Numbered from the stretch's first letter, positions 6,366-40,509 are shown. The stretch: DNA of 43,844 nt from an uncultured Candidatus Saccharibacteria bacterium (GCA_964605995.1 CAZSEN010000001.1:1-43844); one strand, 5' to 3'. The notes: generated from the letters alone by a model not told the origin. Program-made: numbers and translations.

Positions 6366-6400
6366 ATGGTGTTAAATAGCTTCGTAGAAAATTAAATACC

Positions 6401-6993: not shown

Positions 6994-7002
6994 TGGCTTG
7001 CC

Positions 7003-8540: not shown

Positions 8541-8576
8541 ACGGCGCGTTTTCCCTCTGAAAACGCGCCGTTTTTG
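8541..8576 (+). terminator. Terminator-like hairpin downstream of the integrase
   Basis: acggcgcgtttt-ccctctg-aaaacgcgccgt followed by tttt. Confidence 0.5.
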
Positions 8577-8583
8577 ACTTTTG

Positions 8584-8638
8584 TACCCGAGACGGGACTT
8601 GAACCCGTACGGCCGTGAGGCCAAGGGATTTTAAGTCC
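8584..8638 (-). other. 3' half of a tRNA-Leu(UAA)-like sequence (not a complete tRNA)
   Basis: The minus strand reads gga-cttaaaa-tccct, then a long variable arm ggcc-tcac-ggcc, T-arm acggg-ttcaagt-cccgt and acceptor ctcgggt-a. No D-arm or 5' acceptor sequence lies upstream. Confidence 0.7.
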
Positions 8639-8748
8639 AACGGGATCGCAACAAAACGGCTCAAAAAGCCTGAAACGCGGGTTTTGTCACCGGCAAAAAC
8701 AGGGAAGGTCGTTCACTTCCGCACTTGGGTTTTCCGCACTTGGTTAAA

Positions 8749-22122: not shown

Positions 22123-23556
22123 ATGTTCGACATCCTTATTTCAATTTTCGAATCACTGTTCAAGATACTCTTCGAATTGCTTTCGATGCTGTTTGGTGGC
22201 TCCAAGCCCAAAGGATACCATGCACGATTTGCATCAGAAGGTACGGTGCTCTCGCGATGGAACAAAGGCTTTTCATTGACTGGTCGCAAACAGATCACGG
22301 CGAAAGATTCATTCACTAACTGCATGGTAGTAGGTTCGACAGGTTCAGGAAAGACGCAGAGTACATTGCTGCCATCGCTCTTTGCGATGAAAGGATCATT
22401 TATTATCGCAGATCAAAGCGGAGAAATTTTCAAATCAACTTCGGGATTTCTTCATCAGGAAAAGGAATACAATATCAAGATTCTCAACTTGAGCGATGCG
22501 TTATGTTCTTCGGGATTCAATCCAATGAGCCGCGCAAATACTTCTAATGAAATTCAGAAGCTCGCCTCCATGCTGGTGCGCACCACGCTCTCGGGCGGAA
22601 AGGCATCAGATCCATTCTGGGAGACACAAGCGACAACATTGTTGGTCATCCTCATTTCTATTCTGAAGACGCAACCCGAGCAGTATCAGAATCTGTACAA
22701 TGTTCGCCAACTGCTCAATCAGCTTTCAGAGAAGCCAGAAGAAGGACAAAACAATTCCGTCGATTCTTTATTTGTTCGTTACGCCGATCCCGTGCTTTAC
22801 AATGAATACAAGTCGTTCATTGCGTATGACGACAAGTTGCAGACTTCGATTATTGCTTCTGCTAAGTCCGCGCTGACGATTTTCGCCGATGAGACCGTTG
22901 CCCGGATAACTTCGAAGGATACCCTTGATTTTTCTGAATTCCGCAAACGCCCGACTGCGCTATACCTGCAATGCGGCATTCAGGATATGGCCTATTACAG
23001 TCCACTTTACGCGATTTTCTACGAGCAACTTGCTGCGTATCTCCTTTCTCGGTTTCCTACCGATGAGGAACAAGACATCTTCATTTTTGCCGAAGAATTT
23101 GGTTCCACAAATCGCGTACCCGTGTTTCCGGCATTTTTTGCGAATTGTCGAAAGTATCGCGCCGGAATAATGGCCATCGTTCAGGATTATAACCAGATCG
23201 TGAATATCTACGGGAAAGCGGAAGCGGAGTCCATTCGCACCAATTGCTTTTCCAAAGTGTTCTTTGGCGGCGGCTCACTTGAATCAACAAAGGAGCTTTC
23301 TGAGATACTCGGCAAAACCGAATACAAAACAGAGGAAGGGAGGCGCGACGTGATGCCATTGCTCACGCCGGATAGCATCAGGATGCTGAAGAAGGATCGC
23401 GCTTTGGTTATTTGCGGCAGTCATCCACCGATATTGGCCAATGTCCGCCCTGCATACAAAAGTCTTCGCTATCGCGCGTATATGGCCGTACAACCGCCAA
23501 TAGTTAGGGGCGATGCTCCGCAATCAGTAGCAATCCTGCCATTGGGCAGTAAATAA
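22123..23556 (+). CDS. Type IV secretion coupling protein (TraG/VirD4/MobC-of-CTn type), short form
   Basis: Walker A at VVGSTGSGKTQSTLLPS; Walker B-like DIFIFAEEFGS; later IMAIVQDYNQI. Confidence 0.85.
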   Translation: MFDILISIFESLFKILFELLSMLFGGSKPKGYHARFASEGTVLSRWNKGFSLTGRKQITAKDSFTNCMVVGSTGSGKTQSTLLPSLFAMKGSFIIADQSGEIFKSTSGFLHQEKEYNIKILNLSDALCSSGFNPMSRANTSNEIQKLASMLVRTTLSGGKASDPFWETQATTLLVILISILKTQPEQYQNLYNVRQLLNQLSEKPEEGQNNSVDSLFVRYADPVLYNEYKSFIAYDDKLQTSIIASAKSALTIFADETVARITSKDTLDFSEFRKRPTALYLQCGIQDMAYYSPLYAIFYEQLAAYLLSRFPTDEEQDIFIFAEEFGSTNRVPVFPAFFANCRKYRAGIMAIVQDYNQIVNIYGKAEAESIRTNCFSKVFFGGGSLESTKELSEILGKTEYKTEEGRRDVMPLLTPDSIRMLKKDRALVICGSHPPILANVRPAYKSLRYRAYMAVQPPIVRGDAPQSVAILPLGSK

Positions 23557-23563: not shown

Positions 23564-24133
23564 GTGGCTACGCGATCTGCACGTCATTCCGGATTGTGGG
23601 AGTATCTCGAGAAGTCGGGCGTGCTGGTCAGTGGGTCGGATGAAGAAATAAAAACGGTACGGCGTGAGTATCGCAAAATATACCTGAAACAGTACAAGCA
23701 ACAGCAGCGCAAACACAAGCCTGAATTTTTGGTGCAGTTATCACGTGATGGCGAATTAACCACAATCACTGCCGCAGCAAAAAAACACCGCATGAGTGTT
23801 ACCGCATTCCTCCGCCTGGCAACACTGTCGTATATCTCTCGCGTGTTTCTCATTCCTGATCGCCAACTTGTCGGAAAACTCGCAGGACTTCTTGAGTCAT
23901 GCCTGAATGAGGTTCGGGCAATGACAAGCGTGAAAACGAAACAGAACTCTTTCCTGTTGGAAGAAAAGTACGATGCCATCGAGCGGCGCATTATCGAACT
24001 TCAATCAGAACTTCAAAAACTTTTCTTTCATCCGGCATTGCTTGAATCGGCAGTCGCTGAAGCGATACGCATCGATCCTACACTTCGGGATCGTCTGCAA
24101 ATAATTCTCTCTCATGCCCATCGTGAAGATTAA
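23564..24133 (+). CDS. Relaxosome accessory protein (MobC/RHH-like)
   Basis: LVQLSRDGELTTITAAAKKHRMSVTAFLRLATL resembles the MobC-type ribbon-helix-helix. Located directly upstream of the relaxase. Confidence 0.55.
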   Translation: MATRSARHSGLWEYLEKSGVLVSGSDEEIKTVRREYRKIYLKQYKQQQRKHKPEFLVQLSRDGELTTITAAAKKHRMSVTAFLRLATLSYISRVFLIPDRQLVGKLAGLLESCLNEVRAMTSVKTKQNSFLLEEKYDAIERRIIELQSELQKLFFHPALLESAVAEAIRIDPTLRDRLQIILSHAHRED

Positions 24134-24923
24134 GACATACAAAAAACCGAAGTTTGATTATCTGCTCCGGTATATGTGCGAGTCGCAGGACCGGCTCTTT
24201 GACGCGCAAGGGAAGAGCTTTAGGATTACGCACAACATCCGAGGGAAAACCATTGAGGACTGGACACGAAGTTTCCGGGAGAATGAAACGTACCGACAGC
24301 GAAGGCGGAAGAATTCGGTGTACCTCAATCACGAGATCATAAGTTTTCATCGTGATAGCACCAAGCATTTATCAATGGAAAAGCTGGAACAACTCGTTAG
24401 GGAATACATACAATTACGAAACCCGAACGGATGCTACGTGGCTGTTCCACATTTTGACCGTTACCACGTGCATGTCCACATCTGTTCGTCTGCTGTTCAA
24501 TACAGGACAGGAAAAAGTATGCGAATGAGCCGAGGGGAATTGGCTGCGCTCAAAAAGAAGATTCAGGATTTCCAGGTGGAGCGGTTTCCGGAATTGGGAA
24601 GGTCGGTGGTGAGGCATGTGAGGAAAGCAAATGGAAAAGCGTCTGAAAGGGAAATGCAGTATGAGCTGCGGACGGGGAAGATGAGCAAGAGGGAAATGGT
24701 GCGACACATTGTGCAAGACTGTCACCGACGATCTTCATCGCAGGAGGAGTTTTTTGCGCTGTTGAAAGAACAGGGAATGGAGACGTATGTGCGGGGAGGG
24801 AAGGTGTATGGGGTGGTGTGCGAGGGGAAGAAATATAGGTTTACCGCAATGGAACTTGATAAAACTGAACAAGAGAATGACATTAGTAGGGTCAAAAAAG
24901 CCGACCGGGAATTGAAGCGGTAG
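24114..24923 (+). CDS. Relaxase / mobilisation nuclease
   Basis: N-terminal MPIVKIKTYKK..., then a histidine triad at HFDRYHVHVHI (HxDxxHxHxH). Confidence 0.85.
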   Translation: MPIVKIKTYKKPKFDYLLRYMCESQDRLFDAQGKSFRITHNIRGKTIEDWTRSFRENETYRQRRRKNSVYLNHEIISFHRDSTKHLSMEKLEQLVREYIQLRNPNGCYVAVPHFDRYHVHVHICSSAVQYRTGKSMRMSRGELAALKKKIQDFQVERFPELGRSVVRHVRKANGKASEREMQYELRTGKMSKREMVRHIVQDCHRRSSSQEEFFALLKEQGMETYVRGGKVYGVVCEGKKYRFTAMELDKTEQENDISRVKKADRELKR

Positions 24924-24937: not shown

Positions 24938-25939
24938 TTATTTGTTGTTTTCTATGTTCCCTAATCCATTGCATAAAATATCCATTAACGCATCGCTAAT
25001 TCTCACATCTGTCATTAATTCCAACCACAACCACTGTCCGTTACAATTATTTTCCAAAAAATAATATCTCTTATCTTCAGCATAAACAAAATCAAATGCA
25101 GAATATACTAATTGCTGCCGCTTCATGAATTCTAAAATCAATTCCGTGATATAATCCGGAAGAATATGTGGTCGATGAATCATGTTCTCGGGAGATTTCC
25201 CTCTAAAATCAATTTTCGAGAGTTCATGGGTCTGAGAGTGGATTTCAAAAGCAAAAATTTTATACCCCACAACAACCACTCTTACGTCAAATAATTTCGC
25301 AATGTACTGTTGAAATAAAGTAGGGCAAATTTTAATGGCATCAAAAGCATCCTCTATCTCACTTCTTGATCGTATGAGTCTGGTTAAATATGGATACAAC
25401 TTCCCATCCAGGTAAAAATTAGGCTCATCAAGACTCTTATTGCAAATCAATTCATGAACATCGAAAAAGAGCAAAGCCTCTTGAGGGTTGTTTGTCACCA
25501 ATGTTTCCGGGACATCAAATCCCAATGCTTTGGCTGTTGTAAGCTGTTGCAATTTGATTCTGGCGCGGTGTATAGAAGGTAGTGGATTTATCCAAATAGC
25601 TGTGTCATGAAGACAAAAGTATAACCCTCTTAAAACTGCATTCGCCTGTTGTTCACAGAATAAATTAACTTCAGGTTGATCGTAAACAGTTGAATTTATT
25701 TTTTGTGGTCGTCTAAACCAGACGGAAAGAATTTCGTCACTGGAAAAGTTTCGTTTGGAATCTTTAAGATGAATACGAAAGGATTTATTTTGGTACGAGA
25801 TATCAACATTTCCTAAAAAATCTTCAGTGTTGAGACGAACTACTTTTTCCGAAAAACCCTCTTTATTAAATCGGTCAATAATGAAGTCACTATGAGGGTC
25901 ATTCGCAGAAGTAATTATTAAAGCCTTGTTTGCTTTCAT
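24938..25939 (-). CDS. ATP-grasp peptide maturase-like ligase (microviridin MdnB/C-like)
   Basis: 333 aa. The N-terminus ALIITSANDPHSDFIIDRFNKEGFSEKVVRLNTEDF resembles graspetide maturases as I remember them. It sits beside a GNAT and a small Thr/Asp-rich ORF. Confidence 0.7.
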   Translation of the reverse strand: MKANKALIITSANDPHSDFIIDRFNKEGFSEKVVRLNTEDFLGNVDISYQNKSFRIHLKDSKRNFSSDEILSVWFRRPQKINSTVYDQPEVNLFCEQQANAVLRGLYFCLHDTAIWINPLPSIHRARIKLQQLTTAKALGFDVPETLVTNNPQEALLFFDVHELICNKSLDEPNFYLDGKLYPYLTRLIRSRSEIEDAFDAIKICPTLFQQYIAKLFDVRVVVVGYKIFAFEIHSQTHELSKIDFRGKSPENMIHRPHILPDYITELILEFMKRQQLVYSAFDFVYAEDKRYYFLENNCNGQWLWLELMTDVRISDALMDILCNGLGNIENNK

Positions 25940-26435
25940 ATTCTATTTTTGAAAGGAGGTTCGATGCTAATTCAGTTGGGAAATATTTCCTTTGTAATAC
26001 AAGAGTTTGTCTCTCCGCTTTGCAAATTTCCGTAAATCCGAGAGCTTGAACGACTCGCAGACTTCGGTTATTTTCCAAGTTGATTTCTACAAGCAAATCC
26101 TTCTCAATTTCGGATTTGAAATAGAAATCGAATAAGATGGCAGAAGCCAACAATCCTTTCCCTGAATTAAACATATCCGGCGATATCCCTCCTGATACCT
26201 TTGTATAATCCTTACCCAATAGAAAGTGAGCAAAGAAGATAGCTTTCTTTTTGTAGACGAGTGTATATCGGCGTAAATTATTGAAAGGTCTTAAAGCAAT
26301 TTCTTCAACTCGTGTTCTGAATTCGGGAGGAGAGATATCGATAGAATAATTGGTACAGAATTCTCTATTTGAGAAACACTCAATATACAAGCCGAAAATT
26401 ATAGGCTGTGTTTCTAGAATTTGATAATCACACAA
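25899..26435 (-). CDS. GNAT-family N-acetyltransferase-like protein
   Basis: NSGKGLLASAIL (Q/RxxGxG/A-like) and NNRSLRVVQALGF motifs. Overlaps the ATP-grasp ORF by 41 nt. Confidence 0.5.
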   Translation of the reverse strand: MCDYQILETQPIIFGLYIECFSNREFCTNYSIDISPPEFRTRVEEIALRPFNNLRRYTLVYKKKAIFFAHFLLGKDYTKVSGGISPDMFNSGKGLLASAILFDFYFKSEIEKDLLVEINLENNRSLRVVQALGFTEICKAERQTLVLQRKYFPTELASNLLSKIEYESKQGFNNYFCE

Positions 26436-28328: not shown

Positions 28329-29174
28329 ATGAAAAACATCCTGCTCATTCTCGTCCTTGCGCTTTCCTTCACTTGCACTGCGCAGAAATCCCTCACGCTC
28401 TTCATCCAGCCGCAAAGCATTCGAGGCGGTGAATTCTACGTACCAACATCCGGCGGTAACAATCCCACCTACGTCGAATCCGACCGCAAATTCACGCTCG
28501 GTATTCGCTTGGGCGGACTACTCAACTTGCCGATTAGCGACAAGACACATTTCAGCACTGGTCTGTCATACGCCCGCTACGGACAGAAATCCTCGTATGC
28601 TGGTTCGCAACCGTATGGAACGCTCACTGATAACTTCACTATCACGAGTGCGGTCAAGCTCCATTACCTCCAAGTGCCCGCGCTCATCACTAAGTATTGG
28701 GGTACTGAGAAGAAAGCATCATTCTTCTTCTCCGGCGGTATCTACATCGGATTCCTGCTCGGGTACAAGCACGAAATAACCGCTACCGATAATCTTTCAA
28801 ACGGGGACAGTGAAAGCGCCACCAAGACTGCATCCGGCGGAGAACTTGCATTTTCAAGCACCGACTATCAAGGCGACGTATCCTCGTCAACCTATCCGTT
28901 TCTTGAGAAACCGTTTCGTTCTGCAGACTTCGGAATCATACTCGCTAGTGGATACTCCATCAACATATCGGAGAAAGTTTCTATGCCCATCGCGCTCAAC
29001 TATACCCAAGGCATGCGGGACGTGAAGAACGAAACATCCCAATGGACAGACTCCAATGCGAGCAATGCACAACTCTATTGGATGCACTTTTACGAAGGCT
29101 CTGATCCCAACAAAACTTCAAAGTACCGGAATGGTGCGATCGGACTATCTGTTGGACTGCGGATGGCGATATGA
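28329..29174 (+). CDS. Outer-membrane beta-barrel protein
   Basis: Signal peptide MKNILLILVLALSFTCTAQ (ATG 28329 within the track ORF). Alternating beta-strand pattern and aromatic-rich C-terminal strands. Confidence 0.65.
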   Translation: MKNILLILVLALSFTCTAQKSLTLFIQPQSIRGGEFYVPTSGGNNPTYVESDRKFTLGIRLGGLLNLPISDKTHFSTGLSYARYGQKSSYAGSQPYGTLTDNFTITSAVKLHYLQVPALITKYWGTEKKASFFFSGGIYIGFLLGYKHEITATDNLSNGDSESATKTASGGELAFSSTDYQGDVSSSTYPFLEKPFRSADFGIILASGYSINISEKVSMPIALNYTQGMRDVKNETSQWTDSNASNAQLYWMHFYEGSDPNKTSKYRNGAIGLSVGLRMAI

Positions 29175-29259
29175 GCGCTGGAAAATTTCGTTACGCTATT
29201 GCGCACTATTCAAAAACAATTCGACTTCGACTCAAAACTTAGAACCTAAATCTCTATAC

Positions 29260-30291
29260 ATGAAAACAAAAACTCTCGCTGGGGCCTTCCTGCTCCTTTG
29301 CTTGATTGCTGCTTGTACAAAAGAAGGGCCTCCAGGGCCAGCCGGATCACAAGGGCCGCAGGGACCGGGCGGCAGTGGCACTCCTGATCCAAATATTTTT
29401 CACAAATGGGAAGTGGTGAGCGGGCTTCCTAACACAAAGTACGTGATCATTAAAAACGATAATGTCTACTATCAAATGGATTCTGCTGCATACGGGTTCA
29501 AGGATATTTACGGTGCAACTGCACTTATCACCGGTTCGCAGATCGCGTGCTGGAGCATATACAATTATTTAGTAAGTAACGATACGCTGTATCTCGATAA
29601 CTCAAGCGAAACGATCGTCCTCAAGCGAAACGACAATGCTCCGGATGAGACGCAATGGGTAATTTCCGTAACAGAAACAGATAGCATAGCAAGCCCGGTA
29701 TTAAACGGTGACGGCAGGGAAGATATTGGCTTTGATGGCAACAATATTCTGTGGACTGCTGATGCCAACTCTTCAATTATTTATATAATCGATCCGCCCT
29801 CACATGCCGTTATCGGGCAATACACGCTCAGCACAAACTATTCTTACGGACAAATAAATTATGCTGCTTCTAATATCTGGATTTCAAATGGTACAACCGT
29901 GGATAAAGTGAATCCGGCAAATGGAAGCGTCCTTGCGACGAGTCCGTCTCTGACTTCGAGTACGCTTACCGGTATTGCACTTGCGGGGCAGGAAATGTGG
30001 TACAGCGACTGGCAAGGAAACATTGCCACATGGGACATCATTTCAAATGCCATTACGCCGCAGCTTCAATATCCAGTGAATGGGATGGAATACGTGAACG
30101 GATATTTATATATGGTGAGCGGAAACAAGATTCACAAATGTCAACTCTCGCCATTTAAAGCTGTAGCGACGTATGCAATAGGTTCGGCGAATGCAAGCTA
30201 TTCCGGCATTACCCATGACGGTTCTCGTTTTTGGGTGGTGAAATACAACTACAATCAAAACAGTTATTCGCTGGTCAAATTGAGTATATAA
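29260..30291 (+). CDS. Lipoprotein with short collagen-like G-X-Y run and repeat-rich (propeller-like) body
   Basis: Lipobox LLCLIAAC at ATG 29260, followed by GPPGPAGSQGPQGPGG. Confidence 0.6.
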   Translation: MKTKTLAGAFLLLCLIAACTKEGPPGPAGSQGPQGPGGSGTPDPNIFHKWEVVSGLPNTKYVIIKNDNVYYQMDSAAYGFKDIYGATALITGSQIACWSIYNYLVSNDTLYLDNSSETIVLKRNDNAPDETQWVISVTETDSIASPVLNGDGREDIGFDGNNILWTADANSSIIYIIDPPSHAVIGQYTLSTNYSYGQINYAASNIWISNGTTVDKVNPANGSVLATSPSLTSSTLTGIALAGQEMWYSDWQGNIATWDIISNAITPQLQYPVNGMEYVNGYLYMVSGNKIHKCQLSPFKAVATYAIGSANASYSGITHDGSRFWVVKYNYNQNSYSLVKLSI

Positions 30292-30304: not shown

Positions 30305-31483
30305 ATGAAAAACATCCTGCTACTGTTGCTCCCCGCCTTGGTTGCCTGGCACGATCCGGCTCCGGCACAGGGCATCCATTTTGAGCAAGATTCATTCTCC
30401 GTCTTGCTCGCCAAAGCTAAACGAGATCACAAAGCCGTTTTCATAGACTGCTACACCACCTGGTGCGGTCCCTGCAAGTGGATGGAGAAAAACATCTTTC
30501 CCAATGATACCGCTGGAAACTATTACAACTCTCATTTCATTTGCGCCTCTTTCGACATGGAGAAAGGGGAAGGGATTGACCTCAAGAAACGCTATGACGT
30601 GCGCTGTTATCCGACGTATCTCTACATAGACGAGGACGGCAACCTACTCCATCGTGTAAGCAGTACATGTTCTGTGCGGGAATTTGTTGCCCATGGAGAA
30701 ACGGCATTCTCACCGAACAATTACGCCACCCTCGATGCCGCATACCGGAAAGGGAATGCACCGCCGGAAATTCTCCGTGGGTACATCGGTGTTCGACAAG
30801 GCTCCTGTCTTCCGTCCGATTCCGTTCTCGCCACGTACACCGCTACACAACCCGAAAGTGCGTACATGGCGCAGGAGAATTGGAACGTGCTTCGTCTGTA
30901 CGTCCGAGACCCCGCCTGTACTTTGTTCCGTGCCTTGATAGCAAACACAAGTGCATATGAAGCGAAATACACTGCCGATTCAGTACAACAGATAATTCTC
31001 AAAATATACGGTGGTGCGCTCAGCTCCTGCCTGTACCCGAAACTTGATTCCGCACAGTATATGTCACTCCGTGCTGAAATCGTGGCACAGCAGCTTCCGT
31101 ATATGGAACAAGCAGTTTTAGGGAATGATATGGGCTTCTATCAGCAAGCAGGGCAGTGGAAACAATATGCCCATGCTTCCTTCACCTATCTGCAATTGTA
31201 TGCGGATTCCAATTGGTTAATCATGAACAACATTTGTTGGGCGATCTATGAGAACATTGACGATACGCTGATCCTCGATTCGGCACTCACATGGATACAG
31301 AAGTCTATTGCCATCTACGAGAGCTATTACAATACCGATACCTATGCTGCGCTCCTGTACAAACTCGGCAGAAAGGAAGACGCGCTGCGGGCATGTGAAC
31401 GGGCACTTATCCTTGCCGAGCAAGAAAAGATTGAAGCGCCGGGGACGAAGGAATTGCTTGTGAAGATCAAAGCGATGAAGTGA
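30305..31483 (+). CDS. Secreted thioredoxin-fold protein with helical C-terminal domain
   Basis: Signal peptide. FIDCYTTWCGPCKWMEKNIF contains the WCGPC active site. Confidence 0.8.
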   Translation: MKNILLLLLPALVAWHDPAPAQGIHFEQDSFSVLLAKAKRDHKAVFIDCYTTWCGPCKWMEKNIFPNDTAGNYYNSHFICASFDMEKGEGIDLKKRYDVRCYPTYLYIDEDGNLLHRVSSTCSVREFVAHGETAFSPNNYATLDAAYRKGNAPPEILRGYIGVRQGSCLPSDSVLATYTATQPESAYMAQENWNVLRLYVRDPACTLFRALIANTSAYEAKYTADSVQQIILKIYGGALSSCLYPKLDSAQYMSLRAEIVAQQLPYMEQAVLGNDMGFYQQAGQWKQYAHASFTYLQLYADSNWLIMNNICWAIYENIDDTLILDSALTWIQKSIAIYESYYNTDTYAALLYKLGRKEDALRACERALILAEQEKIEAPGTKELLVKIKAMK

Positions 31484-32029: not shown

Positions 32030-33814
32030 ATGCCTCCTATTACATCGTGTGCGACACAGGATCCATTTATTAAACTCGATCCTGCAGGACAAGCGTCCAT
32101 TCTCGATTACAGTCTTCCTGCTGAAACCGAATTCGAAGTCAAAGGATATATGGACATCAAGATTCCTAATCCTGATTGCTGGACTGATTTTGCTAAGGTA
32201 GTGCCTGACACAAATTTCTGGGAAACAACAAAAGACCTTTCAGCGAGTCAGGTGTTGGAATTAATCAACGAAGACATTCTTGGTAGTTCATCAACACCGA
32301 TGTTTCTCAATAATCGCGCACTGCAACGTCTTTCTTTGGTCAACACCGTGGGTGGTCCGCGTGCCGGCGCAGGAAAAGGTTCGGGTGGCGGACCTGGGGC
32401 CGGTGAAGGCAAAGGTCCAACAGTTGGTGGAACACGTCCTGGAAGTAATTCTCAAATTCAACAGGTAGCGATGGATGACGACAATACGCTTATTGCAGGT
32501 CTTTCTGGCAATCAAGTCGTGTCGCAAATTCTTAAGGGTCGCCGTCCATTAGTACGCCCGAACTTTTATGGGAAGCCGGTAGTTACGTTCATTCCAAAAC
32601 CTAAAGCCATAACTCCGACGCTCACACTCGTGTTCCATTACAAGGTATTGACGTTCGCAGGTAACTATGGTGCTGGCAGAACACTGAAGACGTTTAGTTT
32701 ACTTCCGGGTGAAAAAACCACCATTTCCATCACGACATTCAAGCATGATGAAGAAAGAAAGTCCCGGGCGGAAAGCATTTTGGATTCATTCACCGAAAGC
32801 AGTGCGCAGGAATTCCAGAACACTGTGGAAAATCAAAGCGGACGCGAAATGACGTCCGAGTCATCGGAAACAAAATCCAAAGAGTTGAGCGGTGGCGTTA
32901 ACCTTTCCTCTATTGGTATTCCAGTAGATATTTCTGGCGGTGTAAGCAATGCTTCGACGAGTTCCAATACCATGTCGGAACATGTCAGTTCCATCAGTTC
33001 GGCAATGGACACGCATACAAGCAATGCGTCATCCAACCGCGATGTAAACATCAACACAGAAAGCAGCTCAACTTCAATTAGCGAAATAACTGAAGCTACA
33101 GTTCGCCAGTTGCAAAATATCAATCAGAGCCGCGTGTTGAACTTCGTATATCGTCAGCTATTACAGGAATATATCACCATCACTTATCTCGATAATGTAT
33201 CCATTGTCTTCTCAAACGGATACCCGGAGAGCCGGATTGTGGCGAAACTCTCCAACATCAATGATCTTCTTGAAAAAGTTTTGAAAAACGATGCCGGTAC
33301 ACCATGTGACGGAACAATTGATGCGGTACGAAAAGGAATTTTCAAACAACTGTGTAACGTTTTCGACTACCAGGACAACAGTGTTCCATTCATGGAATGC
33401 GTGGAGCAAACACTCAATGATTGTTGTGGCGGAACCGATAAGCCAATCGTTAATAAGTTTGCCCGGAAAATTCCTACGCTGAGTCAGACTGCGGAAGGGA
33501 AGACAGTTCCCGGAATCATTCTTAATGTAAAAAAGCGCATCATGCGCACTGAATCAGTCGTATGCGACGCACTTCTTGGTCAGGGCGAAGCGCTGGATTG
33601 CTTCAACCAGAAGCTACAAGATATTTCTGTGGCCAAGGCTCAGCTTGAGAACGATGAGCAATATCAACGCTTGCAGATTATCACGAATATTCCGAGCGCA
33701 ATCGATCAGGCGGACAAATACAAGAAAGTATTCGGTCCGTGCTGTGAAGTACCGCAATCGTGCTGCGGTGGGGGTTGTGGATGCAATTGCAATCAGGACC
33801 CGACCATACCATAA
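32030..33814 (+). CDS. Large protein of unknown function with Gly-rich linker, Ser/Thr-rich region and Cys-packed C-terminal tail
   Basis: 594 aa with no signal peptide. GGPRAGAGKGSGGGPGAGEGKGPTVGG; the central FSLLPGEKTTISITTF...RVLNFVYRQLLQEY; last residues GPCCEVPQSCCGGGCGCNCNQDPTIP. Confidence 0.6.
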   Translation: MPPITSCATQDPFIKLDPAGQASILDYSLPAETEFEVKGYMDIKIPNPDCWTDFAKVVPDTNFWETTKDLSASQVLELINEDILGSSSTPMFLNNRALQRLSLVNTVGGPRAGAGKGSGGGPGAGEGKGPTVGGTRPGSNSQIQQVAMDDDNTLIAGLSGNQVVSQILKGRRPLVRPNFYGKPVVTFIPKPKAITPTLTLVFHYKVLTFAGNYGAGRTLKTFSLLPGEKTTISITTFKHDEERKSRAESILDSFTESSAQEFQNTVENQSGREMTSESSETKSKELSGGVNLSSIGIPVDISGGVSNASTSSNTMSEHVSSISSAMDTHTSNASSNRDVNINTESSSTSISEITEATVRQLQNINQSRVLNFVYRQLLQEYITITYLDNVSIVFSNGYPESRIVAKLSNINDLLEKVLKNDAGTPCDGTIDAVRKGIFKQLCNVFDYQDNSVPFMECVEQTLNDCCGGTDKPIVNKFARKIPTLSQTAEGKTVPGIILNVKKRIMRTESVVCDALLGQGEALDCFNQKLQDISVAKAQLENDEQYQRLQIITNIPSAIDQADKYKKVFGPCCEVPQSCCGGGCGCNCNQDPTIP

Positions 33815-33897
33815 GCATTTACTTCAATCAACCAATAAACTAACTTAGGTCATCGCCAGAACTCTGCTTGGCGATGACCTTTTAAAAGTATTCAGTT

Positions 33898-34734
33898 ATG
33901 GCATTCAAAAACCCGTGGGGAAAAGGTTCCGGCCAATTCAATCGTTGGATGAAAAATAATCCGTGGGAAGAAGGTGGGGAGTTCTTCAAAAATGCAATTA
34001 GCGAGGCACTTCCGGAATTTAATAATGCAGTGGTAGATATTCACCACATCACATTAACACAGAACTTCAAAAATTCACGAGTATATCTAGTCTATTCGAA
34101 ATTATTAGAGAATTCTGTATTCCAAAAATTTCTTGATCCGTTCAAAAAGAGTAATTTAATGTTTGACTATGAGGTGTTGGATATCGTATATGGCAAGTCT
34201 GCTGAAACAGATTCAGCCGATCCCGAGAATATTTCGATCACGATCAATGGGAATGCAAACCACTACGTAGAAGAAAACGATCCGGGTCCACCTGCGCGAA
34301 TATTCATTAAGAAACCTGCTGATATGTATGTCGCAAAAACCCTAATTCATGAGTGTATCCACGCATATATTACCGTTACTGGGAATAATTATCCCTGGAA
34401 GGGAGCTCCTGGGCCTGTGCAGGAACATAATTATATGGCTACAGAGTACCGCGATGATATCGTCAAAGGGCTCACCGAGTTCGCTAATGAAAATAATGTA
34501 GTAACGTCCGCCGAGGACATTGATGCAATTGCTTGGGCCGGCTTAGATAGTACCACAGCTTTTAGCCAGTTATCCGCGACGGAGCAGTTGGCGATTGATA
34601 CAAGATTCCGCCTTTTTTATTCGCAGACATACTGGTTTGAGTTCGGCTTGGTGCAACAGGATGACATGTCAAAATATGGCGGTAATTTGCCTACCAGCGA
34701 ACAAGCTGCTGCCCAAGCTCATATTCCAAGATGA
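33898..34734 (+). CDS. HExxH zincin-like enzyme with N-terminal FKNPWG tag (candidate effector 1)
   Basis: N-terminus MAFKNPWGKGSGQFNRWMKNNPWEEGG; LIHECIHAY metallopeptidase motif. Confidence 0.6.
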   Translation: MAFKNPWGKGSGQFNRWMKNNPWEEGGEFFKNAISEALPEFNNAVVDIHHITLTQNFKNSRVYLVYSKLLENSVFQKFLDPFKKSNLMFDYEVLDIVYGKSAETDSADPENISITINGNANHYVEENDPGPPARIFIKKPADMYVAKTLIHECIHAYITVTGNNYPWKGAPGPVQEHNYMATEYRDDIVKGLTEFANENNVVTSAEDIDAIAWAGLDSTTAFSQLSATEQLAIDTRFRLFYSQTYWFEFGLVQQDDMSKYGGNLPTSEQAAAQAHIPR

Positions 34735-35360
34735 TAAAAGCGGTTTTACCTTTCGTCGTTTTCGCTTTTGGTATCATCCACTGTTCTTCAGATGGCAGCC
34801 AAGTGGGAGACTCACGATCTGATGATTCCATACTTTCTAAGAATTGGCATTGGAAAGATTCTGTCCTCGCTAATATCCCAAATCGAACGGCATACTACTG
34901 CGATACCACAGCTCGTGGCGACATTGGAACGCTACCATGCGTTGAAGTATTAACGAGGACATTGAATAGAATCAACAATGAGTATTATGTACTAACCGAG
35001 CAATCAATAAGCTCACCAGATAAGATAACGTGCGATACTTTTTTCATCACATCAAACAATAGTTGGTATCAGTTGCACAATCATTCGTCCTATCTCTTCT
35101 TCTCGCGAGACGCCTTTCGTTCAAAGACGACAACAAGTCTTCGTCGAAATGGTTTTAACCCGACGAGTGTAGAAGATTGGATTCCAGATACACAATATGT
35201 TTCGCAGCACTATGGGGAACTCTTCATTTTTGATATTGAATTTCCTCTTAGCCGCGAGCCTAATAATGTTAAAGTTCATTTTTCTCCTAACTATGGAGCA
35301 GTGCACATTGTCAGCGAGATGTCTGTATTTTCAATCAATAGAATAGACTCGATCCGATAA
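34731..35360 (+). CDS. Lipoprotein (candidate immunity 1)
   Basis: ATGA overlap with the upstream stop. Signal/lipobox VVFAFGIIHCSS. Confidence 0.5.
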   Translation: MIKAVLPFVVFAFGIIHCSSDGSQVGDSRSDDSILSKNWHWKDSVLANIPNRTAYYCDTTARGDIGTLPCVEVLTRTLNRINNEYYVLTEQSISSPDKITCDTFFITSNNSWYQLHNHSSYLFFSRDAFRSKTTTSLRRNGFNPTSVEDWIPDTQYVSQHYGELFIFDIEFPLSREPNNVKVHFSPNYGAVHIVSEMSVFSINRIDSIR

Positions 35361-35393
35361 AAAATTAGTCTCATTTCTTAACCAAGATAAATA

Positions 35394-36278
35394 ATGAAAT
35401 TCAAAAATCCATGGGGGTCAGGTACTCCCTCCTTTGACAGATGGTCAAAAAATGACTGGAAAGATGGTGGCGGGTTATTTGAAAGACTCGAAAGCGCAGT
35501 TGAAGCAGAAGCTACTTCAACTCAAGTAGCTTTAGCATTTTGGGGTGGCGCCAAATTGACTTCACATAATAGCGCTTTTAAGTTTGCAGCGCAGAATACG
35601 CAGGCGTCCTACAAAAACTACTATACGAACAAGATCAACTTTGCCACGACAGGTGATTTTATAGTCGGCACAATCGAAGCTCAAACTACAGGGAGCATTG
35701 GTCGCATGGATATCGTAACGCATGCAAGTCCAACCGCATGTTACATGGTTAGGAATAAAGACACAAAGGCCAGCGGGGAACTTGCAGATATTCCCATTGA
35801 ACCAGTAGATATGAGGGAGTCAAATAATTTATGGGCCAGCAGAACTTCCAGAGCAGTGGAATCTGGATGGGATGTACCAACGGGTGATGAGCAAGCGACC
35901 ATTTATGACATCGAAACGGACCGATTCACTAATGATGCTGTAATCGAGTTTCATGGATGTAGAATAGCTGATACACCGGACGCGATGATCTACGACAATA
36001 TAGCCGAAAATTTATCTGAACATTTTTATTCTAATGATAAGACGCGGGTGGTTATATTAGGGCACGCCACCAAAGCAAATCCAAATATAAACGGAGAAAG
36101 TACTACTATAACCGCACAAGATTATCGACATGGAAAAAGAATTGCAGTTCATAATGGAAAAATATTATTCTCGACAACCCGCAAAAAGCACATTGGTCGC
36201 GACGAGATTTTAAAGTTTCTAGAAAAAAAAGAAAAGAATCCGGATACTTATGATGGAAGTAAAGAGACTCTTAAGTAA
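35394..36278 (+). CDS. Enzyme-like protein with N-terminal FKNPWG tag (candidate effector 2)
   Basis: N-terminus MKFKNPWGSGTPSFDRWSKNDWKDGGG; DIVTHASP and IEFHGCRIA form a possible His/Cys dyad. Confidence 0.55.
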   Translation: MKFKNPWGSGTPSFDRWSKNDWKDGGGLFERLESAVEAEATSTQVALAFWGGAKLTSHNSAFKFAAQNTQASYKNYYTNKINFATTGDFIVGTIEAQTTGSIGRMDIVTHASPTACYMVRNKDTKASGELADIPIEPVDMRESNNLWASRTSRAVESGWDVPTGDEQATIYDIETDRFTNDAVIEFHGCRIADTPDAMIYDNIAENLSEHFYSNDKTRVVILGHATKANPNINGESTTITAQDYRHGKRIAVHNGKILFSTTRKKHIGRDEILKFLEKKEKNPDTYDGSKETLK

Positions 36279-36693
36279 GCGGCCTAGAGTAATACTGCTT
36301 GTGCTCGAATGTTGTTTTTTTGTCGGTTGTGGAACTTCAAATTCTGATGTGTCATATGGAACGCAGGACACTGTGCGATTTCAGTATATCGACTGGGCAT
36401 GCGAGTGTGCCCAATGGGCAACATTAGAAGATATTCGTAAGTATGGCAACGACGTTAACACGGATTCATTGGACATAATGTCCGTATATCTTGAACCAGC
36501 AAATGATTCGGTTATTCTTCCTGATACAATAGGGTTCGCTAACGATGTTATTGAATTGTATGGGGATTATCTTCCGGAAAAGGGATTTCCCAGTAATAAA
36601 AGTCCGGGTGAGGGTGCGGAAAAGGCGCGGGTGTTTCGTTATTCAAACTTCCGGATTATTGAAAGCCATCATTACGAGACTATGAATTTCTAG
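36250..36693 (+). CDS. Lipoprotein (candidate immunity 2)
   Basis: Overlaps the upstream gene by 29 nt. Lipobox CCFFVGCGTS. Confidence 0.5.
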   Translation: MMEVKRLLSKRPRVILLVLECCFFVGCGTSNSDVSYGTQDTVRFQYIDWACECAQWATLEDIRKYGNDVNTDSLDIMSVYLEPANDSVILPDTIGFANDVIELYGDYLPEKGFPSNKSPGEGAEKARVFRYSNFRIIESHHYETMNF

Positions 36694-36717: not shown

Positions 36718-36972
36718 TTATTTATTCCCTGTATAGAAAAAATCCCTTAGTTCCTGCTCAGGAATAAACTGAATTAGTCGCTTGAAAATTGCATGCGACG
36801 TACCACGATCCAGCTTCTTATGCAACGGCACCGTCGTCACAAATGATTTCAGACCAGGCTTAAAGCGACCAAGATTCACATGGCTTCCTTTCCTCGATAT
36901 AACAAGTATGTCGTATCGTAAACAGAACCTAATCACTTCATTACCTGAAAGCGATCTCAGTTTGTTATGCAT
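36718..36972 (-). CDS. hicA: HicA-family mRNA interferase toxin
   Basis: LSGNEVIRFCLRYDILVISRKGSHVNLGR...TVPLHKKLDRGTSHAIFKRL matches the HicA pattern (GSH...P.H.....GT...I). Confidence 0.8.
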   Translation of the reverse strand: MHNKLRSLSGNEVIRFCLRYDILVISRKGSHVNLGRFKPGLKSFVTTVPLHKKLDRGTSHAIFKRLIQFIPEQELRDFFYTGNK

Positions 36973-37192
36973 GAGCCGAAAGCGGTAATTCGTAATTGAT
37001 CAGAATAGAAGGCGACTTGCCAATGGTCGGTTCATCAAACCCTGCATCTAAATGCAGTTCTGTAGCTTCTCGAATGTTCTTGAGCAAATCCTCGAGCGTC
37101 TTTGCTTGCGTAATGATTGCGTTGTCGAGCGCAGATGCAACGTAGTATCCATCCTGTCCCTCTTCAATTGAAAATTGAATGATGTTTCTCAT
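36965..37192 (-). CDS. hicB: HicB-family antitoxin (UPF0150-like)
   Basis: FSIEEGQDGYYVASALDNAIITQAKTLEDLLKNIREATELHL. Overlaps hicA by 8 nt. Confidence 0.75.
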   Translation of the reverse strand: MRNIIQFSIEEGQDGYYVASALDNAIITQAKTLEDLLKNIREATELHLDAGFDEPTIGKSPSILINYELPLSAHA

Positions 37193-37508
37193 GAGAGAAC
37201 TATACCATCATGTAGTGCGAAAGTCCATTTGAACTATCATATGTAGATCAAGAAAAACTCAAGAAATGAGCTTGACAAAAATTACTTTATCTGCTAGAGT
37301 AATGTTGGTCGTTTATAAAGTTTAATAATACCCACTGTCCCCGAAAGGGGATCAGCCGAAAGGCTCGATGGAACTTTGGGTTTGTATTATAGCGAAGTTT
37401 CGTGAGAGGATGTGAACGCACATCAATATAGAAACCATCGTTCTTTCTATAAAGAAAGGAACGACTAATGCAAACACCCACTGATTCCATCGGTGGGTGT
37501 TTGCATTT

Positions 37509-38474
37509 ATGAAGTTAAACGAAGCAATAACCAAATTCGAAGAATACTACAAACTGAGAGTGAAGGGTGGAACAATCCGGGGCTATGCACTTGACCTGCG
37601 CCAGCTCTGTCTTTTTCTGCGCAATCCGGCCATTGAGAACGTCCAGGACGAGGATATCATATCGTACTTGAACGGAATGCTCGAATGCGGATGGAATCAG
37701 AATGCACTTATGCCTAAAAGTATTGCATTTCGAAAGTTTTTCCAGTATCTGTCACTGAAAGGATATCGCGTTCTTAACTATCAACTCATCCCGATTATTA
37801 AGAAGCATTTCGTACTTCCGCACGTTGCGGAAAAATGGGAGTACGAGAAGATTATGGAATTCTTTTCTGTCGACTCAAAAGAAAAACATATTATTCGTAA
37901 CCGCGCGATAACGAGTCTCATTTATGATTCTGGTGCCCGTGTCGGCGAAATTGTTGCACTCAATATTGAAGACATTGATCTTGAAAATAAGAGGGCGGTG
38001 ATAAAAACCGAAAAATCTCGCGGCAAAGCCCCGGCGCGACAGATATTCTGGGAAGATGAGACAAACGAAAATCTTAAAAAGTGGTTAGCCGTCAGAGCAG
38101 AGATTTCCGGTTATGTCGATTTTCCAGAGCCGGATGCATTGTTCGTTGGTGTGAGATGCTGGCAGATCGGAAAGCGTTTGACCAATAGCGCCGTTGGTAT
38201 CTTCCTTCGTCACGCATCCCGAAAAATTGGCCTCAAGCGCGTTATGAATCCACACTCGTTGAGACACCTCAAAGGCAACGACATGGCAGAAATGAATACT
38301 AACGAGTTCGTAATCTCTCAGATCCTTGGACACTCTCAAGTTTCAAGTTCGAGAATCTATACACTGCTGAAATCTCCCGTTCTGGAAAAAGCGGCACGAC
38401 GCATTAATGAAAACCGACAGATGCTGCGTTCACCTTTCCAATTGACAACCGAATCGAAGGTGGCGAATGGATAG
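37509..38474 (+). CDS. Xer-like tyrosine recombinase / integrase
   Basis: N-terminal SAM-like domain (GYALDLRQLCLFL), DSGARVGEIVALNIEDID (Arg), NPHSLRHLKG (HxxR) and ILGHSQVSSSRIYT (His...Tyr). ATG 37509; the track gives GTG 37497. Confidence 0.85.
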   Translation: MKLNEAITKFEEYYKLRVKGGTIRGYALDLRQLCLFLRNPAIENVQDEDIISYLNGMLECGWNQNALMPKSIAFRKFFQYLSLKGYRVLNYQLIPIIKKHFVLPHVAEKWEYEKIMEFFSVDSKEKHIIRNRAITSLIYDSGARVGEIVALNIEDIDLENKRAVIKTEKSRGKAPARQIFWEDETNENLKKWLAVRAEISGYVDFPEPDALFVGVRCWQIGKRLTNSAVGIFLRHASRKIGLKRVMNPHSLRHLKGNDMAEMNTNEFVISQILGHSQVSSSRIYTLLKSPVLEKAARRINENRQMLRSPFQLTTESKVANG

Positions 38475-39361: not shown

Positions 39362-39368
39362 ATGATTG

Positions 39369-39439
39369 CGGGAGGTGGAGGAATCGAACCCCCGACAGCG
39401 GTTTTGGAGACCGCAGTTATGCCATTTAACTAACCTCCC
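39369..39439 (-). tRNA. tRNA-Trp (anticodon CCA)
   Basis: Folded by hand: acceptor gggaggt/acctccc, D-arm gtta-aatggca-taac, anticodon arm gcggt-ctCCAaa-accgc, T-arm ggggg-ttcgatt-cctcc. 71 nt with no encoded CCA. Confidence 0.85.
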
Positions 39440-39468: not shown

Positions 39469-40368
39469 TTATTTCAAAAAATTTTTAACTGAATGATTGA
39501 TTTTTCTCAAATCCTTCTTGTGCTTCGGATTGAACCACTGTATTCTGCTGTCTTTTTTGAACCATGTATCCTGTCGTTTGGCATATCTCCAGATTTCAGT
39601 TGAAAGTTTCTCAACCATCTCTTTCTTCGTGATCTTCTTTTGAAGATAGAGCGCCTCGTATTTATATTCAAGGCCGAGCGCCTCCATCCGTTTCCATGAT
39701 AATCCTTTAATATGAAGCCTCTTTGCTTCTCGAAGCATTCCATCTCTAATTCTTTCAATGAGCCTGGCATTTATTTTTTGTTTAAAAAATTTTTCAGGTA
39801 ATTTCAATCCTATTTGGAGAACTTCATAATTTTTCACAGCCTTTTTTATAGCAGGAACGCTGCCCAGTTTTTTTGCAATTTCAATCGCTCGGATCAAACG
39901 TACTTTATTGTGCCGGTCGATTTCATGAGCTCTTCTTGGATCAATTTTTTTCAATATCTTGAAAAGCTCCCCAGCTGATTTTTTCTCAAGCTGTTTTCGG
40001 AGTTTTTCATTGGGTTTCACTTCCGGATAGGAAATATTGTCGACGACTGCATGGATATAAAACCCGGTACCTCCGCAAAGAATCGGGAGTTTTCCCTTTT
40101 TTAAAATCTCTTGTATTTTTTCATCAGCCAGTTTTTTGAAATCTGAAACATTAAAAATTCGTTTCGGGTCTGCGACATCAAGCAAATGATGGGGAATGCC
40201 GGACATTTCTTTTCTGGTCACTTTGCCAGTTCCAAGATTGAGTCCTTTATAGACTTGTCGCGAGTCGGCAGAAACAACTTCACCTTCGAATTTCTTGGCG
40301 ATTTCTATGGCAAGCCCGCTTTTACCGGTCGCTGTTTGGCCGACTATGGCTATTAGTTTGGGTTTCAT
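39469..40368 (-). CDS. miaA: tRNA dimethylallyltransferase
   Basis: MKPKLIAIVGQTATGKSGLAIEIAK...VSADSRQVYKGLNLGTGK. Start is set at ATG 40368; the longer track ORF runs into the tRNA-Leu gene. Confidence 0.9.
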   Translation of the reverse strand: MKPKLIAIVGQTATGKSGLAIEIAKKFEGEVVSADSRQVYKGLNLGTGKVTRKEMSGIPHHLLDVADPKRIFNVSDFKKLADEKIQEILKKGKLPILCGGTGFYIHAVVDNISYPEVKPNEKLRKQLEKKSAGELFKILKKIDPRRAHEIDRHNKVRLIRAIEIAKKLGSVPAIKKAVKNYEVLQIGLKLPEKFFKQKINARLIERIRDGMLREAKRLHIKGLSWKRMEALGLEYKYEALYLQKKITKKEMVEKLSTEIWRYAKRQDTWFKKDSRIQWFNPKHKKDLRKINHSVKNFLK

Positions 40369-40393
40369 AATTAATGAATAGAGTAGCAGAAAA

Positions 40394-40424
40394 TAAAAAA
40401 CCGCGCTATGCTGCGCGGTTTTTC
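40394..40424. terminator. Bidirectional hairpin between tRNA-Leu and miaA
   Basis: aaaaaaa-aaccgcgc-tatgct-gcgcggtt-tttc. Confidence 0.5.
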
Positions 40425-40427
40425 TTG

Positions 40428-40509
40428 TGCCCGAGGAGAGAATCGAACTCTCACATCTTTCGATACACGATTTTGAGTCGTGCGCGTCTACCAATTCCGC
40501 CACTCGGGC
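40428..40509 (-). tRNA. tRNA-Leu (anticodon CAA)
   Basis: The minus strand reads gcccgagtggcggaattggtagacgcg...cacga-ctCAAaa-tcgtg, then a long variable arm, T-arm gagag-ttcgatt-ctctc and acceptor ctcgggc-a. Confidence 0.85.

Follow-up and report, generated by a model that had tools for sequence, protein, structure and literature searches.

Positions 32,030 to 36,693 of a 43,844-nucleotide (nt) stretch of DNA from an uncultured Candidatus Saccharibacteria bacterium (GCA_964605995.1 CAZSEN010000001.1:1-43844) raise the question of why two otherwise unrelated enzymes should begin with the same short N-terminal tag and be encoded beside a large protein of no recognized family. The whole stretch is referred to here as the window, and all coordinates are positions in it. 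The 594-amino-acid (aa) protein encoded at 32030-33814 is called, together with its relatives, the carrier, and the tagged enzymes are called cargo. The answer favored here, with a probability of roughly 60%, is that the five genes form a split polymorphic toxin-immunity locus on a mobile element, with delivery of the toxins mediated by the carrier. Its central part, a tag-specific carrier combined with polymorphic toxins and their immunity proteins, is held with considerable confidence. The additional idea that the carrier provides a binary-toxin-like pore or translocon is put forward only tentatively. The genes and tags on which the argument turns are the following.

32030-33814, + strand: carrier gene, 594 aa, without a signal peptide, forming the system's conserved core
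33898-34734, + strand: cargo 1, a tagged HExxH zincin-like enzyme of 278 aa, putative toxin, no signal peptide
33898-33978, + strand: tag of cargo 1, MAFKNPWGKGSGQFNRWMKNNPWEEGG
34731-35360, + strand: putative immunity protein 1, 209 aa, lipoprotein-type signal, N-terminus MIKAVLPFVVFAFGIIHCSS
35394-36278, + strand: cargo 2, a tagged enzyme of 294 aa with a conserved His...Cys pair, putative toxin
35394-35474, + strand: tag of cargo 2, MKFKNPWGSGTPSFDRWSKNDWKDGGG
36250-36693, + strand: putative immunity protein 2, 147 aa, lipobox FVGC

The layout described in an earlier, sequence-only reading of this DNA was reproduced. All five plus-strand open reading frames (ORFs) are present at the coordinates claimed, and so are both gene overlaps: an ATGA at 34731-34734, which gives translational coupling of cargo 1 to immunity 1, and 29 nt (36250-36278) between cargo 2 and immunity 2. 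For the two small ORFs, the proposed lipoprotein-type signals correspond to signal- or lipobox-like N-termini, which run ...FAFGIIHC-SS in the first and ...CCFFVGC-GT in the second. The module is preceded by 546 nt of intergenic DNA that contain a terminator-like hairpin. The Pfam, NCBIfam, PHROGs and PADLOC profile libraries returned nothing significant for any of the five proteins, and none of them matches a characterized family. Scans with Rfam and for promoters and terminators found nothing relevant.

The carrier belongs to a large family. A word-indexed search yielded 430 relatives; among the matches listed, none had a Pfam domain and nearly all of the named ones were called 'hypothetical'. 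An HMMER profile search that was exhaustive over 1.84 billion cluster representatives gave 1814 clusters at 50% identity with E<=1e-3, 1146 with E<=1e-10 and 741 with E<=1e-30. A scan of species-representative genomes found at least 189 carrier relatives in six phyla. The majority occur in Bacteroidota, including Chryseobacterium indologenes, Myroides, Flavobacterium, Galbibacter and Kordia. Other hosts are Alphaproteobacteria (Kiloniella, Reyranella), Gammaproteobacteria (Halopseudomonas, Sedimenticola) and Acidobacteriota. Gram-positive hosts are few and comprise one Spirillospora (Actinomycetota) and, in Bacillota, Paenibacillus and Bacillus gaemokensis. No fused toxin domain was found in carrier homologues with C-terminal extensions, and one of them bears DUF1508.

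The link between tag and carrier was examined in 84 carrier-related loci, whose ORFs were called naively. The 1157 non-overlapping ORFs from these loci were clustered and served as the BLASTP database. In this comparison the N-termini of cargo 1 and cargo 2 are 54.8% identical (17/31 residues, E 1.3e-6) and show no similarity beyond that point, precisely the shared beginning and subsequent divergence that had been counted by eye. The carrier, present in 81 of the 84 loci, is the sole family common to them. The only other families found in more than five loci are the Tae4-like cargo (14), a second cargo (13), a third cargo (7) and partner genes of the Tae4 cargo (8), while the remaining recurrent neighbors are generic (histidine kinases, aldehyde dehydrogenase, haloacid dehalogenase-type hydrolase and a protein with a type IX secretion system, T9SS, tail). 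No secretion machine, ATP-binding cassette (ABC) exporter or lysis gene recurs across the 84 loci, and many of them are embedded among housekeeping genes.

The carrier stop codon is followed, in most loci, by an ORF whose start lies 3-100 nt further on and which opens with a Trp motif a few residues after its Met. The core of the tag across the family is [N/D]-x-W near the initiator Met, and the pattern in the window is M-x-F-K-N-P-W-G-x-G...(D/N)-R-W. Tags of many Bacteroidota read FKNPWG, FDNPWSA or FNNPWG. NPWDxGGE is found in Acidobacteriota and some Proteobacteria, NLWACNPW in Alphaproteobacteria, and NIWGEEVLDSKD, DFWRSEW and NKW in other clades of Bacteroidota. The motif precedes diverse, mutually unrelated C-termini among 69 cargo proteins, and with this the recurrence foreseen by the sequence-only reading is borne out.

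The linkage holds in both directions. A hidden Markov model (HMM) of the tag, built from 10 seed tags and run on 5399 ORFs of the loci with a cut-off of E<=1e-3, matched 15 non-seed proteins, and all 15 are encoded on the carrier strand, either as the next gene after the carrier or within an array that adjoins it; the tag of cargo 1 scores 46.5 bits against this model. In the reverse direction, an exact degenerate DNA pattern for FKNPWGKG was searched in a metagenome collection. Two of the seven matches were chance occurrences in ORFs of 14-19 aa, and the remaining five were genuine N-terminal tags, every one of them directly after a carrier C-terminus (VFGxCC or LDCYN). On these comparisons, recurrence of the shared tag is far beyond chance and extends over dozens of independent loci. 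The expected co-occurrence of the 594-aa homologue with the tag was thus found in the loci, in the HMM matches and in the metagenome alike.

The type of tag also tracks the clade of the carrier, even within single genomes. In Kordia sp. (locus L045), tandem carriers at 4548-6578 and 7980-10316 are 60% identical; each is followed by a cargo of its own, and the two cargo proteins bear different tag variants. In one metagenome-assembled genome, two carriers that are 34% identical are associated with an FKNPW tag (L040) and an ENKW tag (L078). Because the linkage is strict in both directions and tag and carrier covary within single genomes, binding of the tag by the carrier is likely.

These regularities bear on another explanation, in which the carrier either acts by itself as a pore-forming toxin or is unrelated to the tagged enzymes, which simply share toxin islands with it. 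Toxin genes do often cluster on mobile elements, and the carrier weakly resembles beta pore-forming toxins, as described below. Mere co-clustering would nevertheless leave unaccounted for the fixed order and strand, with the cargo starting 3-100 nt past the carrier stop in most loci, and the two-way linkage with covariation of tag type and carrier clade. The loci also contain no conserved immunity gene for the carrier itself. The explanation is highly improbable.

The short shared tag with its terminal Gly-Gly, on enzymes otherwise unrelated, had led to the proposal of a delivery, packaging or cleavable-leader signal, with the large protein as carrier or scaffold. The delivery and carrier part of this proposal is supported by the tag-carrier linkage, whereas the cleavable leader is not, the GG being unfixed and no exporter recurring. 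Stated in full, the leader explanation has a C39-peptidase ABC exporter, encoded at some other site, cleave the tag, and it gives the 594-aa protein no part in export. A GG or GGG does stand at the end of each window tag, around residue 26-27, and the tag residues, GG included, are invariant within the cargo 1 family. Across the tags, however, the position of GG varies and the pair is often absent, the conserved element being [N/D]-x-W. A canonical double-glycine leader is a hydrophobic and acidic pattern ending in GG, and the tags do not resemble it. Only carrier, cargo and putative immunity genes recur in the loci, hence no C39/ABC transporter does, and the strict linkage to the carrier would be left unexplained. 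A double-glycine leader is accordingly considered barely credible.

Two further features of these loci were observed. Some cargo proteins have a second, acidic motif, approximately (V/I)LDS(K/Y)D..(D/N)P.S or DSPEP(Q/N), which follows or replaces the Trp motif (loci L014/L015, L043, L044, L047, L048, L051, L052 and L059) and suggests that the tag of some carrier clades is bipartite or of an alternative type. In four loci, proteins clustering with an ORF of L003 that combines Pkinase and LANC_like domains, and thus resembles class III/IV lanthipeptide synthetases, are encoded near the carrier (L003/L033, on the same contig, 5608-9030; L074, 3027-6203; L037, 16364-17626). In L003 and L074 a small gene for a Cys-containing peptide lies beside the synthetase-like gene. 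These neighbors may be a coincidence, or they may be tied to the Ser/Thr-rich and Cys-rich regions of the carrier.

The identity of the cargo suggests that it consists of toxins. Comparison of the 69 cargo proteins with Pfam identified Tae4 in nine, and Peptidase_M15, a Tlde1 domain and DUF6402 in one each; the rest had no match. The diverse cargo bodies thus include known peptidoglycan-targeting toxin domains. On the Sinorhizobium meliloti plasmid pAK76 (L093, 54489-58361), a distant carrier homologue (24% identity over 426 aa, E 1e-17) has as its downstream neighbor a protein annotated by NCBI as 'polymorphic toxin type 44 domain-containing' (Ntox44). This pair sits between a TraA relaxase gene and the type IV coupling protein (T4CP)/VirB genes of the conjugative plasmid. 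Several loci contain two or three cassettes, as the window does.

In the window itself, the predicted catalytic motifs of both enzymes were recovered. The HExxH motif of cargo 1 (HECIH, residues 151-155, nt 34348-34362) is invariant in its homologues: H151, E152, H155, E176 and H177 are the same in all five. The homology search with this protein found these five relatives only, without tag-only matches, and its Pfam matches are weak and sub-threshold (SprT-like and Peptidase_M91). The His/Cys pair of cargo 2 lies in DIVTHAS (residues 106-112) and EFHGC (185-189), and both motifs are kept in its sole detected homologue, the cargo of L072 (23% identity over 232 aa, E 8e-13), as DxxxHAS and IExHGC; the tags of the two proteins differ. 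Cargo 2 has no Pfam match, and PDB sequence searches with the cargo proteins came back empty.

Tae4 and Tlde1 are classical type VI secretion system (T6SS) effector families. Under the corresponding alternative, the carrier would be a loading adaptor or structural carrier for an unlinked subtype iii T6SS (T6SSiii), extracellular contractile injection system (eCIS) or type IV secretion system (T4SS), with the tag as its loading signal. The arrangement resembles that of T6SS cargo effectors, which are associated with VgrG, Hcp, PAAR, Eag or DUF4123 proteins: signal-less, periplasm-acting Tae4 and Tlde1 proteins are encoded directly after a carrier gene, and periplasmic immunity genes come next. 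A T6SSiii is known in many of the host taxa, among them Chryseobacterium, Flavobacterium and Myroides, and T4CP, relaxase or VirB genes are close by both in the window and at the plasmid locus of S. meliloti. A weak Pfam match of the carrier to TssC (E 0.0024) points the same way. That match, however, is below threshold and occurs in one of 53 members, and a TssC identity for the carrier was rejected. No vgrG, hcp, PAAR or known adaptor gene is present in the window or recurs in the 84 loci, nor does any T6SS, eCIS or T4SS gene family recur in them, and the carrier has no relationship to VgrG, Hcp, PAAR or the known adaptors. Carriers are also found in monoderm phyla, in Bacillus, Paenibacillus and Spirillospora, lineages that are not known to have a T6SS, and many loci lie among housekeeping genes. 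This alternative is regarded as improbable.

The third gene of each cassette looks like an immunity gene. An N-terminal hydrophobic, signal-like segment is present in 39 of 52 third genes, in 2 of 62 cargo proteins and in none of 75 carriers, compared with a background of 31% of all ORFs. Immunity 1 of the window occupies the position equivalent to that of the exported third gene in these 39 loci, and in L004 a tagged Tae4 cargo is likewise followed by a signal-peptide protein. The effector-immunity arrangement that had been proposed from the lipoprotein signals therefore fits the family as a whole. Immunity 2 is 31% identical over 106 aa to the product of the gene after the L072 cargo. Both cargo 2 and its partner thus have homologues in a pair that bears a different tag, and the cassette therefore appears to move as a unit while tags are swapped. 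Peptidoglycan hydrolases without signal peptides, combined with exported immunity proteins, would mean that the toxin reaches the periplasm from outside, that is, by interbacterial delivery.

Signal-less toxins with exported immunity proteins are also characteristic of envelope-acting colicins and pyocins. The locus could accordingly be read as a colicin-like two-component bacteriocin released by lysis, in which the tag is an import epitope for the target cell (similar to a TolB or TonB box) and the carrier is responsible for receptor binding or outer-membrane translocation. Colicins and pyocins lack signal peptides and secretion machines and have short, disordered N-terminal import epitopes; the tag is likewise N-terminal, probably disordered, Trp-containing and Gly-rich. 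The TolB box of ColE9, 32-GASDGSGWSSENNPW-46, depends on N44 and W46 (PMC2821528), and the tag core N-P-W, followed by Gly-rich residues, shares NPW with 43-NNPW-46 of this box. The cargo is mainly periplasm-acting and its immunity proteins are exported, and the Gram-positive hosts, which lack Tol-Pal, have loci without the NPW tag. The resemblance nevertheless amounts to 3-4 residues, and the tags do not contain the defining core of the box, DG(S/T)GWSSE. The cargo polypeptide does not itself include receptor-binding and translocation domains, the tag is found next to carriers only, and no lysis gene recurs. Two carriers with different tags in one genome would also be unexpected if the tag addressed a single conserved protein of the target cell. 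An import epitope of this kind is rather unlikely.

The carrier itself has several conserved features, which are located in the window as follows.

32045-32077, + strand: N-terminal peptide of the carrier, SCxxxxPFIKL..., with invariant Cys7 (53-sequence alignment)
32351-32443, + strand: Gly-rich linker, residues 108-138
32885-32935, + strand: amphipathic beta-alternating segment LSGGVNLSSIGIPVDIS, residues 286-302, at the hairpin tip in the Ser/Thr-rich region
33728-33793, + strand: C-terminal VFGxCC motif and Cys-rich tail, VFGPCCEVPQSCCGGGCGCNCN

The composition attributed to the 594-aa protein, namely no N-terminal hydrophobic segment, a Gly-rich linker, a Ser/Thr-rich middle and seven Cys in the last 24 residues, was found as described. 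In the 53-sequence alignment C7 and P12 are invariant, and S6, L16, G20, A22, L25, Y27 and P30 are nearly so. The N-terminal peptide has a predicted local distance difference test (pLDDT) score of 45-51 in the AlphaFold2 (AF2) model, and its high conservation together with low model confidence suggests that it is an interaction epitope. The Gly-rich linker, with a pLDDT below 50, varies in length and composition across the family. Conserved blocks of the same alignment are GDYGAGxTxKTFSLLPGEKTTISI, NINxSRVLNFVFRQLLQEY and DALLGQGEALDCYN. C571 and C572 are nearly invariant, and the tail past PQS/PQT is variable, being either Cys-rich or of the PQTQII type. The second carrier of the Kordia locus is without the CC motif.

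A single large protein beside diverse enzymes that share a short conserved terminal peptide is also the genomic signature of encapsulins. In an encapsulin-like arrangement the carrier would form a shell and the tags would act as cargo-loading peptides, giving either a lysis-released toxin particle or a storage compartment. The conserved Cys at both termini of the carrier (C7, C571 and C572) could lock such an assembly by disulfides. The structural searches speak otherwise: Foldseek comparisons with the PDB and with BFVD found no HK97, encapsulin, capsid or other shell fold. Scanned IMG/VR viral contigs contained zero carriers. The tag differs from encapsulin cargo-loading peptides in being N-terminal and Trp-based, and toxins in cassette arrays with exported immunity genes are foreign to metabolic nanocompartments. 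Packaging of this type is very improbable.

The structure of the carrier was modeled with AF2, both at full length (53 sequences, pLDDT 73, predicted template modeling score 0.67) and for the core of residues 150-570 (114 sequences, pLDDT 78). The models are of moderate confidence. They contain very long beta strands (197-224, 370-395 and 496-516), a long pair of C-terminal helices and low-confidence termini, together with a protruding helical hairpin (approximately 256-273 and 308-335) whose tip is disordered. In the family average, residues 286-302 show strong period-2 alternation of hydrophobicity and are flanked by amphipathic helices; in the core model these residues fall in a disordered loop with a pLDDT of 28-36. 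Alternation within a disordered loop may be taken as the signature of a pre-stem loop, and it is treated as a lead and not as a demonstration. The best match of the carrier profile among PDB sequences is the anthrax protective antigen (PA) fragment PA-63, at a sub-threshold E of 0.05, and the alignment pairs the Ser/Thr-rich center of the carrier with the 2beta2-2beta3 membrane-insertion loop of PA.

Two observations on individual homologues may be added. The sole significant structural match of the carrier model, found in BFVD, is A0A5K0U6Q4 of Yasminevirus sp. GU-2018, an uncharacterized giant-virus protein of 642 aa (E 2e-9, 18% identity to the carrier) that may be a horizontally acquired family member. 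In the pAK76 homologue, which lacks both terminal Cys motifs, a reading of the translation shows that the central hairpin alternates even more clearly.

Under the favored reading of a split, carrier-delivered toxin-immunity locus, the mechanism would proceed as follows. The carrier would recognize the tag on whichever toxin is encoded beside it and would transfer the tagged toxin out of the producer into the envelope of neighboring bacteria, and the immunity proteins, acting in the periplasm or at the membrane, would shield sibling cells. In the more specific version, the carrier would oligomerize and its amphipathic hairpin (residues ~286-302, with Ser/Thr-rich flanks and amphipathic helices) would insert as a beta-barrel pore. 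The N-terminally tagged cargo would then pass through this pore or dock on it, in the manner of the B component of a binary AB toxin. The broadest version is on balance unlikely: that the ~590-aa carrier constitutes a self-sufficient, single-protein delivery device of diderms and monoderms, with an [N/D]-x-W tag, a pore of new fold and no numbered secretion system, spread by mobile elements.

Several points weigh against this reading. The whole evidence base is computational. Both carrier and cargo lack a signal peptide, so that it is not apparent how they would cross the producer's own membranes. The two window enzymes lie outside recognized toxin families and offer HExxH and His/Cys motifs only. 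A signal-like segment is absent from 13 of the 52 third genes. The covariation of tag and carrier clade could stem partly from shared ancestry. Carriers of the Gram-positive hosts lack the N-terminal Cys, keep the CC pair and have no NPW tag in their loci. In the Kiloniella/Halopseudomonas/Rhodospirillales clade, a cargo-like gene for a protein of ~360 aa is found directly upstream of the carrier (L018, L023, L026, L029 and L030, at about 6.8-8.0 kb). This protein is homologous to NPWD-tagged cargo elsewhere and starts with MADPTxTPVL, without a clear NPW. As judged from these loci, gene order and tag are therefore not universal.

The remaining points concern the pore. Foldseek found no significant match to the carrier in the PDB: the best E was 0.035 at full length and 0.006 for the core, the latter to the alpha-hairpin of MexA, and the TM-scores of the PDB matches were 0.08-0.14. 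Both lists of non-significant matches consist mostly of beta pore-forming toxins (Toxin_10/Tpp, aerolysin, epsilon-toxin, parasporin-2, leukocidins and cholesterol-dependent cytolysins), with E values for the aerolysin/ETX-MTX2/Toxin_10 types of 0.035 or worse, probabilities <=0.28 and TM-scores in the same range; PA is absent among the Foldseek matches listed. Pfam results for the 53 carriers are inconsistent, with TssC in one, Binary_toxB_2 in one (E 0.075) and weak DUF6414 matches in four. The flanks of the hairpin are helices in AF2, the MexA alpha-hairpin stands at the top of the core list, and the loci hold no conserved, dedicated immunity gene for a pore-former. As no significant structural or profile match was obtained for the carrier, the pore idea draws on weak similarity and a hydrophobicity pattern.

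Among known systems, the comparison begins with polymorphic toxins. The TANFOR-domain polymorphic toxins of Bacteroidetes, the closest described class there, are single large polypeptides (PMC7073777). With Rhs, CdiA, MafB and TANFOR systems (polymorphic toxins in the sense of Zhang/Aravind 2012) the module shares a conserved trafficking part combined with hypervariable toxin parts, the downstream position of the putative immunity gene, cassette arrays and a frequent association with mobile elements. The Tae4, Tlde1-like and Ntox44 domains of related loci also belong to this repertoire, although the window enzymes fall outside recognized families. The difference is that delivery part and toxin are separate polypeptides here, linked by an N-terminal tag of ~10-30 residues, and that the carrier is covered by neither a Pfam nor an NCBIfam model, lacks a signal peptide and shows no recognizable link to a type V (T5SS), VI, VII (T7SS) or IX secretion system.

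Binary AB toxins offer the second parallel. In PA with lethal factor and edema factor (LF/EF), and in the C2II and Ib systems, one component serves unrelated enzymes that share an N-terminal recognition region. The carrier may also resemble them in having a Ser/Thr-rich loop and a hairpin of alternating hydrophobicity without fixed order in the monomer, as far as the AF2 model and the PA-63 match at E 0.05 indicate. In contrast to these toxins, the carrier shows no significant sequence or fold similarity to them, does not match Binary_toxB and has no Sec signal, and the tag is a short peptide where binary toxins have a binding domain of ~250 aa. The targets here also appear to be bacterial, because immunity genes are present.

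The judgment of the sequence-only reading that this combination matches no described system stands: no such system was found in a literature coverage that is incomplete. With the same limit of coverage for full texts, neither the carrier family nor the tag is described in the profile libraries, the source annotation or the full-text literature. What appears to be new is a detached trafficking module of a polymorphic toxin system, and possibly a delivery route in its own right.

The surroundings of the module are those of a mobile element. The GC (guanine plus cytosine) content of the window swings between 36% and 50%, and the following genes were located.

7003-8445: tyrosine integrase
22123-23556: TraG/VirD4 coupling protein (T4CP)
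24114-24923: relaxase
36718-36972 and 36965-37192, - strand: HicA-like and HicB-type-looking pair
37497-38474: second tyrosine integrase, downstream of the module
39368-39439: tRNA-Trp

A Rep-O-like protein, a Dam-type methylase and a DDE transposase fragment are also encoded. The window looks like mosaic mobile DNA, and the module therefore appears to be cargo of an integrated element. On its 3' side the order is a HicA-like gene (- strand), the integrase, tRNA-Trp, miaA and tRNA-Leu. An att-type repeat of tRNA-Trp of >=14 nt was sought and none was found. In agreement with the sequence-only reading, the window encodes no secretion machine for the toxins; the T4CP and relaxase at 22-25 kb are assigned to the mobile element.

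Other genes of the window are recorded for completeness. A defense-type island in a low-GC stretch comprises an Eco57I/MmeI-like type IIG restriction-modification enzyme (9486-12119, - strand), a GmrSD_N protein (14094-15647, + strand) and then an AAA_15/DUF3696 ATPase (15651-16922, + strand). In a patch of 36% GC, the gene for an MvdD-like ATP-grasp enzyme (PF21068; 24938-25939, - strand) overlaps an unannotated ORF of 178 aa (25899-26435, - strand) and may be a maturation gene for a microviridin-type ribosomally synthesized and post-translationally modified peptide. Two genes are found just upstream of the module: an ORF (29056-30291, + strand) that contains an internal signal- or lipobox-like stretch and a short collagen-like GPPGPAGSQGPQGPGG run, and a gene for an exported protein with a thioredoxin fold and tetratricopeptide repeats (30305-31483, + strand). 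An extracytoplasmic thiol oxidoreductase beside a Cys-rich carrier is suggestive; neither of these two genes recurs in other carrier loci. Between module and integrase, the HicA-like toxin (sub-threshold in Pfam, E 3.6e-5) is overlapped by an upstream ORF of 75 aa that looks like HicB. The mechanically called miaA ORF (39469-40503, - strand) starts at a GTG inside tRNA-Leu (40427-40509). ORF calling has probably added its first ~25 residues in error; the match to Pfam IPPT begins at residue 83.

If the favored reading of a carrier-delivered, split toxin-immunity locus is true, the module represents an unrecognized and widespread route of interbacterial antagonism, with ~1800 clusters in at least six phyla. 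Its hosts include soil, aquatic and animal-associated Bacteroidota as well as clinical Chryseobacterium and Myroides. The reading would explain why 'T6SS' effector domains such as Tae4 and Tlde1 occur at loci without T6SS genes. It would also provide a trafficking module not known before, together with a new marker tag by which toxins and immunity genes could be mined, most of the cargo bodies found here being without a known domain. Very short, portable and served by one partner protein, the tag would be usable for protein delivery. In this way, a large family of 'hypothetical proteins' gains a function that can be tested.

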